64,000 nucleotides of DNA from Bacilli bacterium (GCA_017934595.1 JAGBJG010000008.1:65687-129686); one strand, 5' to 3'; positions 37,127-41,226 are shown, numbered from the stretch's first letter. Notes: generated from the letters alone by a model not told the origin. A program made the numbers and translations.

Positions 37127-37489
37127 ATGAAAAAAGGATTTACTTTGGTTGAATTATTAGCTGTAATAGCTGTACTAGCTTTAATAGCTGCTATATCATA
37201 TCCTATTGTTACAGGCCTATTAGGTGATATGAAAGAAAATGCATCTGAATCACAAAAAAGAGAAATTATTGATGCAGCTAAATATTGGGTACAAAATAAT
37301 AGTGCGTTATTATCAGATACAGTAGGTGCAGAATATACATTAACTGTTCAAAGACTTAAAGATGAAGAATATCTTAGTAATGAAAAATTAAGAGATATAG
37401 AAACTAGCGCAGTATTAAAAAAAGCTTGTGTAAAAATAACTACACAAGATCATAAATACACATATGAATATGTTAAAAATTGCCAATAA
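37127..37489 (+). CDS. prepilin-type (type IV pilin/ComGC-like) pseudopilin
   Basis: MKKGFTLVELLAVIAVLALIA class III signal (G at -1, E at +5). Confidence 0.7.
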   Translation: MKKGFTLVELLAVIAVLALIAAISYPIVTGLLGDMKENASESQKREIIDAAKYWVQNNSALLSDTVGAEYTLTVQRLKDEEYLSNEKLRDIETSAVLKKACVKITTQDHKYTYEYVKNCQ

Positions 37490-37500
37490 AAAAATACTAA

Positions 37501-37629
37501 TTATTTAGCATTTTTTTTGTTCTTTTTTCTATTTGCATAAGTTTTGTTAACTAATTTTACTTTTTTACCAATCTTAGTTATAAATTTTTTCTTAGTACCT
37601 TCAGGTAAGTTTGCTTTAATTACTTTCAT
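37501..37629 (-). CDS. small basic 42-aa protein MKVIKANLPEGTKKKFITKIGKKVKLVNKTYANRKKNKKNAK
   Basis: Very strong RBS GGAGGTG 7 nt before the ATG on the minus strand; Lys-rich; below the ORF-track length cut-off. Confidence 0.35.
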   Translation of the reverse strand: MKVIKANLPEGTKKKFITKIGKKVKLVNKTYANRKKNKKNAK

Positions 37630-37752
37630 ATAGCACCTCCATACACATATAAAATTATATCATAAATATTTTAATTTACATACAATTATTTGTTAAATTT
37701 GCAAAAAAGTATTCCAAAAACTATAAAATATGTTATAATATTATTGTTCTTT

Positions 37753-37828
37753 TGGATTGTTAGCTCAGTTGGTAGAGCAACTGACTCTTAATCAGTGGGT
37801 CTAGGGTTCGAGTCCCTAACAGTCCACC
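37753..37828 (+). tRNA. tRNA-Lys (anticodon CTT)
   Basis: Acceptor GGATTGT/ACAGTCC, anticodon loop CTCTTAA, T-loop TTCGAGT, CCA end. Confidence 0.8.
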
Positions 37829-37921
37829 ATTTATGTTTATTACTGATTTTTTGTTTATTTTGTGTAAAAAGGTATTGCCAAAACGCATAAAATAATATAT
37901 AATTAAAAAGTCAGTTGAATT

Positions 37922-37998
37922 GGACCTGTAGCTCAGTTGGTTAGAGCACACGCTTGATAAGCGTGGGGTCATAGGTTCAAGTCCTATCAGGTCCACCA
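37922..37998 (+). tRNA. tRNA-Ile (anticodon GAT)
   Basis: Acceptor GGACCTG/CAGGTCC, anticodon loop TTGATAA, CCA end. Confidence 0.85.
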
Positions 37999-38002
37999 AA
38001 TT

Positions 38003-38079
38003 GCCTTAATAGCTCAGTTGGTTAGAGCACTTGACTGTTAATCAAGGGGTCGTAGGTTCGAGTCCTACTTGGGGCGCCA
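38003..38079 (+). tRNA. tRNA-Asn (anticodon GTT)
   Basis: Acceptor GCCTTAA/TTGGGGC, anticodon loop CTGTTAA, CCA end. Confidence 0.85.
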
Positions 38080-38160: not shown

Positions 38161-38242
38161 TTTTGAAATTAACCTAGATTTATATCTGGGTTTTATTTTG
38201 TCTATTTTTATGATAAAATATTATAAGAATAGGAGACTGAAC

Positions 38243-39583
38243 ATGAAGAAAAAGGGATTTACATTAATAGAGTTATTAGCAGTAATAGTAATATTAGCTA
38301 TAATAGCTTTAATATTAACACCAGTGATAAGTAATGTAATAGAAAGCGCACGTGAAGCTGCATTTAAACAAACGATAAATGGAGTACTATCAGCAGCAGA
38401 AAGTTATGTAACAGAACATATATTAGACAATAATGGGACAGATATGCAATATCCAATTACATTTACATGTGATGGCGTATCATGTAAGGATGAAAATAAT
38501 AATGAATTAGTGTTTAATGGAAAAGTACCGATAACAGGAACAGTAATTATAGAAGAAAATACTATAAGAGCAGAGGAATTATGTGATGGAAAACAATGTG
38601 GTTCTGGATCCAAAGAAAACGTAATAGTAAATAATGGTTCAACTCCAGTAGAAGCATGCAACGCTTCACCTGGTGATGTATGGTTATTTAATTATTTAGA
38701 TGAAACACATGAAACAAGATATCATACTTTTGCTATCCCATGTCGTGGAACATATAAATTTGAAGTATGGGGAGCTCAAGGCGGTTCAGTTGATTCATAC
38801 TATGGAGGTAAAGGTGGTTACTCTGTTGGTGAACTCCCATTAACTACTGCTGATACTTTATATATTGCTGTTGGTGGTCAAGGTGGTAAATCCGGATCTG
38901 GCGTAGTTTATGGTGGATACAATGGCGGTGGTAACGGCCATGGTGGAACATGTAATGGAAATGGAAATAGATGGGGGACTTCTGGTGGTGGAGCTACTCA
39001 TATAGCTAAAGTTCCTGGAGAATTACCGTTACTTGAATCTTATAAAGGTATATTAAGTGATAATGGTACTACCAATGATATATCTGATGATCATTATATA
39101 TCTGATTATATTTTAATTGTAGCCGGAGGCGGCGGTGGTGGTTTTAACATTGCAAATTGGATGTATGGACCTGGTGGCTTTGGTGGAGGTGCTGTTGGTG
39201 GAAATGGTACTCATAATAGTGCTGGTCAAACAACTGATTATGCTACAGGTGGTACACAAATATCTGCCGGTTACCCTGGTGATGGATATACAAGTATTTC
39301 ATCTAGAAGTGCTCGCTTTATAGAATATACAATTGCATCTTTTGGTCAAGGCGGTAATACCACTACTTGGGATTGTATAGAAGGCGGCGGAGGCGGCGGA
39401 GGCTTCTTTGGTGGTGGTTCTGGTTCAGAAACAGCAGGAGCTGGTGGATCTGGATATATAGGTGTACTAAGTAATGCTTCAATGATAGCTGGTAATTCAG
39501 CTATGCCAACATATGATGGAACATCAACAATGATAGGTAATGGTGGAAATGGATTTGCCAAAATTACATTTTTAGGTAATTAA
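38243..39583 (+). CDS. type IV prepilin-like N-terminus fused to a large glycine-rich domain (446 aa)
   Basis: MKKKGFTLIELLAVIVILAIIA class III signal, then YKFEVWGAQGG...YIAVGGQGG motifs and long G runs. Start at 38243 with RBS AGGAG. The ORF-track start at 38069 overlaps the tRNAs and is rejected. Confidence 0.6.
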   Translation: MKKKGFTLIELLAVIVILAIIALILTPVISNVIESAREAAFKQTINGVLSAAESYVTEHILDNNGTDMQYPITFTCDGVSCKDENNNELVFNGKVPITGTVIIEENTIRAEELCDGKQCGSGSKENVIVNNGSTPVEACNASPGDVWLFNYLDETHETRYHTFAIPCRGTYKFEVWGAQGGSVDSYYGGKGGYSVGELPLTTADTLYIAVGGQGGKSGSGVVYGGYNGGGNGHGGTCNGNGNRWGTSGGGATHIAKVPGELPLLESYKGILSDNGTTNDISDDHYISDYILIVAGGGGGGFNIANWMYGPGGFGGGAVGGNGTHNSAGQTTDYATGGTQISAGYPGDGYTSISSRSARFIEYTIASFGQGGNTTTWDCIEGGGGGGGFFGGGSGSETAGAGGSGYIGVLSNASMIAGNSAMPTYDGTSTMIGNGGNGFAKITFLGN

Positions 39584-39636
39584 ATAATATAAGATAACTG
39601 CATTTTTGCAGTTTTTTATTATATGAATATATTGAC

Positions 39637-39665
39637 AATTTGATTATAATAATTTATAATTAAGT
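39637..39665 (+). promoter_or_regulatory. perfect consensus promoter TTGACA, 17-nt spacer, TATAAT for tRNA-Ser
   Basis: -35 at 39637-39642; -10 at 39660-39665. Confidence 0.55.
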
Positions 39666-39673
39666 AGTCAGTT

Positions 39674-39764
39674 GGAGTAGTACTCAAGAGGCTGAAGAGG
39701 CGCCCCTGCTAAGGGTGTAGACCGGGTAACTGGTGCGAAGGTTCAAATCCTTTCTACTCCGCCA
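39674..39764 (+). tRNA. tRNA-Ser (anticodon GCT), long variable arm
   Basis: Acceptor GGAGTAG/CTACTCC, anticodon loop CTGCTAA, 19-nt variable arm, CCA end; terminator follows at 39776-39805. Confidence 0.85.
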
Positions 39765-39858
39765 TGATGAAATTGAAGCAATAGACTCAAGTTTATTGCT
39801 TTTTTCATTGTAAAAAAAATATTAAATGATATACTATATACAGAATAGGAGAGTATAT

Positions 39859-41226
39859 ATGAAGGAAAAGGGATTTACATTAATAGAATTATTGGCAGTT
39901 ATAGTAATATTAGCTATAATAGCTTTAATAATAACTCCAATAATATCAAACGTTATTGATGCTTCTAGAAAAGCAGCCTTTAAAGAATCAGTAAATGGTA
40001 TTATTGATTCAGGAGGAAGTTATCTACAAGAATATATTTTAGCTCATAATGATGAATTAAATGATTTTCCAGTAGAATTTCCATGTGATGGAACAAAATG
40101 TGGAAATGATGAATTTACTTTAACATTTAAAGGAAATGTACCAAAAAGTGGAAATATCATAATTCAAAGAGATGGTATATTAGCTGAATATATCACAGAC
40201 GGAAAATACTGTGCATACGGATATAAATGGAATTTAGTAGTAGAAAATAGTTGTGGGGATGTAGATGTGACAAACCCAACAATTACAGGAACACAAAACG
40301 GAAAAGTTATAACATTAACAATGACAGATAATGAATCTGGAATAGATAGTTATTGTGCGACTAATGTTGATAGTACTGAAGGATGTAATTGGGTAGTACC
40401 AAGTAATGCTTCAAGTGAAGAATATGAAATAGCAGAAGCAGGAACAAAATATTTCTTTACTAAAGATAAAAAGGGAAATATTTCAGATAGTATTAATTTT
40501 ACAACGACATCAAATGATTATTGCCAATATATTTTAAATCCAATAGCTGGCGAATATGGATATAAAGGTAGTGTTCAATCATTTACAGTACCAGCTGATT
40601 GTCCTGGAACATATAAATTAGAAGTATGGGGAGCACAAGGTGGTAGTAGTACACAAGGTGGCTCTGGTGCCTATGGTGGTTATTCTTCTGGAACAGTAAA
40701 ACTAGCTGCTGGAACAGTATTATATATTGCAGTAGGAGGCCAAGGCGGCGCTGGTGGTGGTGGCTATAACGGCGGTGGATCTGCGTTTAGTATAAGTGGT
40801 GGCGGTGGCGGAGCTACACATATTGCTACTACTAACCGTGGTACATTATCAAATTATAATTCATATAGAAGTGAAGTTTTAATTGTTGCAGGTGGTGGCG
40901 GCGGAGTTGGTTTTTGGACAGATTATGGTCTTCAATTCTTAGCTGGTGGTGCTGGTGGTGGTACTACTGGTGGAAATAGTACACGTGGTGCTCAAGGTGG
41001 AACTCAAAGTAGTGGTTATGCCTTTGGTCAAGGTGGCAATGGGACATGTTATGGCGGTGGAGCTGGCGGCGGCGGCGGCTGGTATGGCGGCTATGGTATT
41101 AACTGTAATGATGGTGGTGGCGGCGGTGGTTCCGGATATATCGGCGGTGTAACCGACGGAACTACAACAGCTGGGCAACGTGCAGGACATGGTGGTGCTA
41201 AAATAACTTTCATAAGTTTTAATTAA
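39859..41226 (+). CDS. type IV prepilin-like N-terminus fused to a large glycine-rich domain (455 aa), paralog of 38243-39583
   Basis: MKEKGFTLIELLAVIVILAIIA, then YKLEVWGAQGG...YIAVGGQGG and G runs; C-terminal AKITFISFN, like AKITFLGN in the paralog. Confidence 0.6.
   Translation: MKEKGFTLIELLAVIVILAIIALIITPIISNVIDASRKAAFKESVNGIIDSGGSYLQEYILAHNDELNDFPVEFPCDGTKCGNDEFTLTFKGNVPKSGNIIIQRDGILAEYITDGKYCAYGYKWNLVVENSCGDVDVTNPTITGTQNGKVITLTMTDNESGIDSYCATNVDSTEGCNWVVPSNASSEEYEIAEAGTKYFFTKDKKGNISDSINFTTTSNDYCQYILNPIAGEYGYKGSVQSFTVPADCPGTYKLEVWGAQGGSSTQGGSGAYGGYSSGTVKLAAGTVLYIAVGGQGGAGGGGYNGGGSAFSISGGGGGATHIATTNRGTLSNYNSYRSEVLIVAGGGGGVGFWTDYGLQFLAGGAGGGTTGGNSTRGAQGGTQSSGYAFGQGGNGTCYGGGAGGGGGWYGGYGINCNDGGGGGGSGYIGGVTDGTTTAGQRAGHGGAKITFISFN

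Follow-up and report, generated by a model that had tools for sequence, protein, structure and literature searches.

Type IV Pilins with ALK/LTK-Type Glycine-Rich Cargo at a tRNA-Interspersed Locus of a Bacilli Bacterium

Modular pilins consist of a pilin module joined by a linker to an extra domain that is not specific to type IV pilus biology (PMC8179133). Here, we describe a locus encoding three type IV pilins, two of them modular, at positions 37127 to 41226 of a 64,000-nucleotide (nt) stretch of a contig from an uncultured, low-G+C member of the Bacilli that lives in the gut (GCA_017934595.1, JAGBJG010000008.1:65687-129686). This whole stretch is called the window, and coordinates refer to it unless another locus is named. 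The three genes with pilin signals lie on the plus strand, interspersed with five tRNA genes (Lys, Ile, Asn, Glu, and Ser), and the open reading frames (ORFs) and tRNAs stand where a preliminary description of the DNA had placed them. Both large proteins are, with near certainty, modular type IV pilins with a cargo of the type found in ALK and LTK. We consider it fairly probable that a filament built by a type IV pilus machine displays this glycine-rich domain as an adhesin, presumably at the filament tip; we infer this functional chain from features of the family, the precedent of Streptococcus sanguinis, and an analogy with phage fibers.

Prepilin signals and domain anatomy

The N termini of all three proteins fit the consensus M-K-K/E-(K)-G|F-T-L-[IV]-E-L-L-A-V: a short basic leader ends in Gly (−1), positions +1 and +5 are Phe and Glu, and some 20 hydrophobic residues come next. 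The small pilin (37127-37489, plus strand, 120 amino acids [aa]) has a 4-residue leader, MKKG|FTLVELLAVIAVLALIAA; pilin 1 (38243-39583, plus strand, 446 aa) starts MKKKG|FTLIELLAVIVILAIIAL and pilin 2 (39859-41226, plus strand, 455 aa) starts MKEKG|FTLIELLAVIVILAIIAL, each with a 5-residue leader (38243-38257 in pilin 1). PF07963 (N_methyl) was matched at 30.2 bits by the small pilin, 31.5 bits by pilin 1, and 30.4 bits by pilin 2 (cutoff, 21.2), and TIGR02532 was matched by all three at 30 to 33 bits (33.1 for the small pilin; cutoff, 16.3). Motif and models together show that the class III signals proposed in the preliminary description are real, and that all three proteins carry this hallmark of type IV pilins.

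The second component is equally clear in the two large proteins, 20 to 21% of whose residues are glycine. PF12810 (ALK_LTK_GRD, formerly Gly_rich; cutoff, 24.5 bits) was matched by pilin 1 at 124 bits (E = 1.3e-35, model positions 7 to 243 of 243) and by pilin 2 at 89 bits (E = 6e-25, model positions 7 to 242 of 243), well above threshold, so that both the assignment to the glycine-rich family and the description of the pair as paralogous pilin/glycine-rich fusions hold. Family alignments of 70 and 48 sequences were built. The sequence islands pointed out previously proved to be family-wide conserved columns in the larger alignment (YK[LF]EVWGAQGG, LYI.VGG.G, and AKIT[FY]).

AlphaFold2 (AF2) models of both large pilins were confident (predicted local distance difference test [pLDDT], 93.1 for pilin 1 and 92.3 for pilin 2), with the helix and head of each at a pLDDT of about 90 or higher. 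In pilin 1, an alpha1 helix (residues 8 to 62) is followed by a beta head (residues 63 to 135, 38429-38647; strands at residues 72 to 131), a linker of lower model confidence between two well-folded parts (residues ~132 to 145), and a TNF-like plus glycine-rich domain (residues 146 to 446, 38678-39580), which is predicted to combine beta strands with long glycine-rich stretches that have no helix or strand assignment. Pilin 2 has the same helix (residues 8 to 62), a head (residues 72 to 129), and a TNF-like plus glycine-rich domain (residues 229 to 455, 40543-41223), with a seven-stranded immunoglobulin (Ig)-like beta-sandwich inserted between the last two (residues 141 to 216, 40279-40506). 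In both predicted structures, an extended alpha1 helix packs against an antiparallel beta head, as in type IV pilins, and the small, disulfide-containing heads carry conserved Cys pairs and an invariant G-x-x-P-x-x-G motif (G93, P96, and G99). The glycine-rich part had been estimated at about 400 aa; its actual length is about 300 aa (pilin 1) or about 225 aa (pilin 2), the rest being folded pilin head and, in pilin 2, the Ig-like domain. Pilin module, linker, and extra domain are thus all present in both proteins, which is the makeup by which modular pilins are defined.

Structure databases returned the same two components. The family profile matched pilins in the PDB (geopilin 9egp, E = 3e-11; S. 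sanguinis PilE1 8pfb, E = 1e-10, over chain residues 1 to 93; then MshA and PilA) and also ALK/SCD-2 receptor ectodomains (E = 2e-12 to 6e-9; 2e-12 for 7lir and 2e-10 for 7n00). Foldseek against the PDB gave 21 significant matches for each large-pilin model, all of them to the TNF-like plus glycine-rich (TG) domains of ALK or LTK; for pilin 2 these were followed by FN3, PKD, and Ig domains, which fit its middle Ig-like domain. A beta-helix, suggested earlier for the glycine-rich part, is not what was predicted: both AF2 and Foldseek point to the ALK/LTK-type fold. The likeness to the ALK/LTK TG domain (7nx1, 7lrz, 7n00, and 7lir) lies in PF12810, in profile matches at E = 1e-9 to 1e-12, and in these being the sole significant PDB structural matches for both pilins. 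The differences are that identity is 15 to 25% and template modeling (TM) scores are 0.33 to 0.47, that the bacterial domain rides on a pilin whereas the receptor domain belongs to a chain with EGF-like, transmembrane, and kinase parts, and that an ALKAL-like ligand is neither known nor expected for the large pilins.

The combination extends well beyond this locus. A protein identical to pilin 1 is present on 7 contigs. N_methyl and PF12810 were both found in 103 of the 120 best protein clusters, with lengths grouped around 400 to 480 and 700 to 770 aa. The matches among species-representative genomes came from uncultured gut metagenome-assembled genomes (MAGs) labeled Bacilli, Tenericutes, Mycoplasmatota, or Erysipelotrichaceae, obtained from humans, ruminants, rabbits, and birds and often holding several loci each. 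The N_methyl-PF12810 architecture is, judged from these sequences, common in uncultured gut Bacilli. Other genomes likewise hold two pilins with the glycine-rich domain each, among housekeeping genes.

The pilin module is not tied to one cargo. Among long ORFs with the same signal at related loci, N_methyl was matched by 57 of 57, and their cargos included ALK_LTK_GRD, DUF6273, Ig-like, DUF285, BspA-type leucine-rich repeats (LRR), Flg_new, Laminin_G_3, and fn3, with many lacking any Pfam match. In related genomes, the same module is joined to LRR, lectin, Ig, DUF285, Flg_new, and further cargo of adhesin type, and proteins that start with the same signal range from 76 to 2674 aa.

Further occurrences concern the separate parts of the architecture. 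The glycine-rich domain was seen in giant cellular proteins of 2568, 3003, and 4663 aa, the last encoded by an ORF of a sheep-gut Bacilli MAG (L042, 2-13990), and also in a Saccharibacteria MAG. The Bacteroidota isolate Segatella paludivivens DSM 17968 (L079, 411-15290) carries a tandem array of seven glycine-rich-domain genes. On the contig studied here, a fourth protein with a pilin signal (N_methyl; 612 aa, without a recognizable cargo domain) is encoded about 8 kb past the window end (L004, 17972-19810), adjoining the genes for RNase HII, CvpA, and RF-1.

Proposed filament assembly and display at the tip

In the proposed mechanism, a PilD-type prepilin peptidase would cut the 5-residue leader after the glycine and methylate Phe1, and the hydrophobic alpha1-N segment would keep the large pilin in the membrane. 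A PilB/PilC-type machine, encoded elsewhere in the genome, would build it into a type IV filament, where, being bulky, it would most probably sit at the tip, with the glycine-rich domain facing outward as a binding (adhesin) module. The small pilin may be a filament subunit, either major or minor; the related genome GCA_024712465.1 (L005) carries a small pilin of 121 aa at the same position.

Two known systems guided this proposal. In S. sanguinis, the module grafted onto the minor pilin PilB is an adhesin, most probably located at the pilus tip (Raynaud et al. 2021, PMC8179133). PilB (vWA) and PilC (lectin) of that species share with the present proteins a monoderm host and a class III signal with a short leader (PMC8179133; PMC9934059), as well as a small pilin module, a short linker, and a bulky, independently folding binding module, and the family profile matches PilE1 over 93 residues. 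They differ in that the large pilins here carry a TNF-like plus glycine-rich domain instead of vWA or lectin, that the genes lie outside a pil operon, and that a large expanded family of uncultured gut Bacilli stands here against a single pair of minor pilins.

The second system is viral. The fiber of cyanophage Pam3 ends in a TNF-like plus glycine-rich pair that forms the distal, receptor-recognizing tip and superposes on ALK 7LIR (PMC9608196). A TNF-like plus glycine-rich pair placed distally on a long filament, as in Pam3 gp24 (7ypx; PMC9608196), follows the same logic as the pilus tip proposed here. Gp24, however, forms a trimer, is docked through an alpha-helical bundle, and depends on a chaperone, whereas here the carrier is a pilin and a chaperone gene is not evident; the direct Foldseek match to 7ypx was also weak (E = 0.18). 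Among predicted viral structures, 67 significantly matched the glycine-rich domain; they include virion structural proteins, among them those of cyanophage and Caulobacter phage, as well as proteins of gut siphoviruses. The best of these matches (E = 1e-19 to 1e-15, gut phage) were closer than the ALK match. In IMG/VR contigs, we found the glycine-rich domain alone or a pilin-like N terminus alone, never the fusion; a phage origin of the fusion was rejected because it was absent from the viral contigs examined.

Assembly machinery was sought around the locus and among relatives. In relative L092, a pilin 57% identical to pilin 2 lies 4.5 to 8 kb from genes for a PilB-type T2SSE with a tetracysteine motif, a 611-aa T2SSF, and a 254-aa Peptidase_A24 with an A24_N_bact zinc-finger domain and a GGGDIKL motif. 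In L070 (79-7161), modular pilins with N_methyl lie between CpaF and TadB of a Tad-type cluster with two TadE-like genes, a ParA-like gene, CpaF, and two T2SSF genes. With the CpaF-like ATPase of L070 as the query, Tad CpaF was found at 73% identity or more in more than 120 clusters of gut Bacilli. From L092 and from L070 with its Tad relatives, we conclude that at least two kinds of type IV filament machine exist in the clade. Most of its modular pilin genes are not beside assembly machinery.

Two observations on ATPases and Tad genes are recorded in passing. The compact Tad/Flp cluster, very conserved in gut Bacilli (L090/L091, 8232-13556; L070, 79-7161), comprises a 65-aa Flp pilin (G|QALVEY), two TadE-like genes, a ParA-like gene, CpaF, a TadB fused to an Ig-like domain, and TadC. 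Within the window itself, two paralogous P-loop ATPases of the DUF87 (HerA-like) family, each about 588 aa long, are encoded 10 kb apart (5417-7183 and 17490-19259); they are unrelated to pilus ATPases.

Several results weigh against the proposal as a whole. Pfam annotation of the contig, which covered window positions ~3800 to 64000 plus 10 kb beyond the window end, found no T2SSE, T2SSF, or Peptidase_A24, and the 612-aa protein past the window end was its sole further N_methyl protein. Machinery was nearby in only two of about 86 related loci, and motif scans for the T2SSE Walker A and the A24 peptidase over 1.38 Mb of related loci detected it in L070 only. TM-scores to ALK/LTK were modest (0.43 to 0.47 normalized to the target). 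Among close orthologues (five sequences), the glycine-rich domain was more conserved than the pilin head (71% versus 58%), and a hypervariable distal tip was not evident, unlike in phage fibers.

An alternative is surface display without a filament, in which the class III signal would serve secretion and anchoring, as in archaeal bindosome proteins, and the large proteins would be membrane-anchored, stand-alone adhesins. The pilin genes lie dispersed between housekeeping genes and at a distance from machinery; several occur per genome; and the same signal heads proteins of 76 to 2674 aa, many of which are hard to picture in a filament. Nevertheless, the full alpha1 helix and the conserved head with the invariant G93, P96, and G99 have been kept, and these amount to a polymerization module. 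Characterized modular pilins do get polymerized (PMC8179133), and the complete PilB/PilC/PilD set near a glycine-rich-domain pilin in L092 also speaks for assembly. We regard anchoring without a filament as unlikely, while giving it real weight.

A role in DNA uptake appears improbable. The small pilin had been called ComGC-like, and on that reading it would be the major subunit of a Com pseudopilus, with the large proteins as its minor pilins. Com pili are indeed widespread in Bacilli (PMC12153270), and the small pilin resembles ComGC in its small size, short leader, and monoderm host; short leaders and a weak, subthreshold similarity to the ComGC, ComGD, ComGE, and ComGF models also agree with this reading. 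The ComGC label did not survive, however: the small pilin scored 18.4 bits against the ComGC equivalog model NF040999 (cutoff, 75), and the best scores for the Com models NF040999, NF040982, NF041013, and NF041002 were 18 to 28 bits against cutoffs of 49 to 80. Neither comGA nor comGB is adjacent, there is no comG operon context, and the cargo domain is known for recognizing ligands and receptors, not for binding DNA.

tRNA context and the variable slot

The window is very AT rich (G+C content, 26.6%), and the locus has murF, ddl, tRNA genes, and a cysteine desulfurase gene as neighbors. Downstream of the small pilin, a minus-strand ORF (37501-37629) encodes a very basic 42-aa protein that is conserved in L005. 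It is followed by a block of four plus-strand tRNA genes, tRNA-Lys(CTT) (37754-37829), tRNA-Ile(GAT) (37922-37998), tRNA-Asn(GTT) (38003-38079), and tRNA-Glu(TTC) (38084-38160), found by ARAGORN and Rfam (37754-38160; Rfam tRNA model, 56 to 76 bits). Between the two large pilins lies a tRNA-Ser(GCT) (39674-39764, plus strand; ARAGORN and Rfam).

The mechanically called ORFs of the large pilins are too long at the 5' end, that of pilin 1 beginning at a TTG within the tRNA block. Its real start is the ATG at 38243; this ATG and the one at 39859 each lie 7 to 8 nt downstream of an AGGAG and match the gene-caller boundaries on the public contig. A 134-nt direct repeat (38210-38343 and 39826-39959, plus strand, 82% identity) spans the 5' untranslated region with the ribosome-binding site and the region coding for the signal peptide and alpha1-N of both genes; its similarity may reflect constraint or gene conversion, and it could offer a handle for recombination.

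Each gene had been credited with its own promoter and terminator, which holds in part. Terminator-like hairpins (6 found, 1.9 expected by chance) follow tRNA-Glu (38171-38192), pilin 1 (39596-39613, bidirectional and conserved in L005), and tRNA-Ser (39775-39802); one was looked for 3' of pilin 2 and not found. The perfect promoter reported for tRNA-Ser was found at 39632-39660 (plus strand; sigma-70, TTGACA-17-TATAAT, 12 of 12 consensus positions), and the whole tRNA-Ser unit of promoter, tRNA, and hairpin (39632-39802) is nearly identical in L005. Taken together, promoter-like matches in DNA this rich in AT are about as numerous as chance predicts (27 found, 23 expected).

The 42-aa ORF is identical in L005 at 39 of 42 residues, in DNA of about 80% identity, and has homologues in 15 clusters of 36 to 54 aa. 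Those of distant relatives lie in unrelated contexts, away from pilins and tRNAs, and a functional tie to the pilins was rejected on this ground. Its conservation suggests that it is probably a real small protein and a mere neighbor of the pilins.

Comparison with L005 showed which part of the locus varies. Its gene order is the same: murF and ddl are followed by the small pilin, the 42-aa ORF, tRNA-Lys/Ile/Asn/Glu, a glycine-rich-domain pilin (75% identical to pilin 1), and tRNA-Ser, with cysteine desulfurase and thioredoxin genes downstream. Two stretches of the window, 33491 to 40004 and 41246 onward, align collinearly with L005 at about 80% DNA identity. In the slot after tRNA-Ser, L005 encodes a 1172-aa pilin with a homologous pilin module and a cargo of Flg_new repeats plus GBS_Bsp-like, followed by a 137-aa ORF. 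Between these two related genomes, only the position right after tRNA-Ser thus varies by lineage, and its two occupants are members of one pilin family; it is a slot for different modular pilins of that family in related genomes.

The tRNA genes themselves are bystanders, independent transcription units that separate the pilin genes in this lineage. Among 82 loci of other genomes, 1 of about 117 pilin or glycine-rich-domain ORFs lay within 600 bp of a tRNA. Adjacency to tRNA genes was accordingly rejected as a property of the family and is specific to this lineage; the tRNA link had earlier been taken to suggest a variable locus, and the relatives examined carry such ORFs mostly at non-tRNA loci, while the block is syntenic in L005.

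Very improbable is a horizontally acquired or phage-derived island inserted at the tRNA genes: the genes do lie beside tRNAs, phage structural proteins commonly carry the glycine-rich domain, and the slot after tRNA-Ser holds different genes in the two related genomes, but no integrase was found within 10 kb on either side, no phage genes nearby, and no att-like repeat at the locus; the G+C content at third positions (GC3) of non-Gly codons (0.12 in pilin 1 and 0.10 in pilin 2) is at background (0.13); L005 shares the tRNA block and pilin 1 in synteny, at about 80% identity; family members elsewhere are not tRNA linked; and viral contigs never carry the fusion. The raised overall G+C content of the large pilin genes is due to glycine codons. 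A tRNA-linked island was therefore rejected; only the gene after tRNA-Ser differs between the two related genomes. Of the earlier view of a variable, possibly horizontally acquired locus, the variability stands for this slot, whereas a signal of horizontal transfer is missing.

Nor does the duplication mark the locus as variable, as had been thought. Pilins 1 and 2 are 35% identical over their full length and 50% identical in the pilin module (BLASTP with composition correction aligned the pilin modules only; without correction, the alignment was full length), and each has closer relatives in other genomes, from which we conclude that the duplication is ancient.

Elsewhere in the window, several unrelated elements were noted. 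Housekeeping genes surround a MazE/PemK toxin-antitoxin pair and a protein with a Bro-N domain, whose family is common in phages (~9419-9996 and 32636-33460). Immediately upstream of a PF13958 ToxN_toxin gene (~22395-22745) is a 35-nt tandem repeat (22184-22295; 3.2 copies, 89% match), and the region 22184-22745 looks like a type III (ToxIN-like) toxin-antitoxin locus with a repeated RNA antitoxin. A DUF3800-I RNA (Rfam RF02969; 63553-63678, minus strand; 60.9 bits against a threshold of 44.2) abuts a DUF3800 protein gene (62816-63559).

Meaning for uncultured gut Bacilli

The modular pilin concept and the bare N_methyl-PF12810 architecture are already in the literature; what is new here is a documented family and its context, with no new principle. 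The preliminary description had called the fusions unusually large for pilins. Large they are, but not unusual, since large pilins are a described class and the architecture appears in Dataset S1 of its survey, which lists IPR012902-PF12810 (2 proteins) and a three-copy variant, while Dataset S2 lists a PilY1 with PF12810 (PMC8179133). In the full text of the literature, we found no study of a pilin with PF12810 cargo; searches on the ALK glycine-rich domain or polyglycine in bacteria or phage yielded mostly nothing useful, and those on RF39 and type IV pili yielded nothing relevant. PF12810 itself turned up in a single, unrelated paper on fungi. Added interest comes from the rare glycine-rich fold of ALK and phage fibers as cargo and from the size of the family in poorly known gut Bacilli.

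One unusual fold links three settings, namely, the ligand-binding domain of ALK/LTK, the tips of phage fibers, and bacterial pili, which supports the view of the TNF-like plus glycine-rich domain as a general distal-tip recognition module; abundant bacterial homologues are on offer for study of this fold. A broader reading, which we put forward tentatively and hold to be rather doubtful, is that modular pilins, in a repertoire that has expanded and whose members can be exchanged, may serve reduced-genome, uncultured gut Bacilli as their main adhesins. The glycine-rich-domain pilins would then be the cellular counterpart of phage fiber tips, binding a receptor on host mucosal or microbial surfaces, and recombination in the slot after tRNA-Ser would swap cargo types between lineages. 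If this is true, a single conserved carrier would be fused to cargos of glycine-rich/ALK-like, LRR, lectin, Ig, DUF285, and giant repeat type, with several such genes in each genome dispersed among housekeeping genes. For uncultured gut Bacilli with reduced genomes, the locus provides specific candidate adhesins that pili would present.

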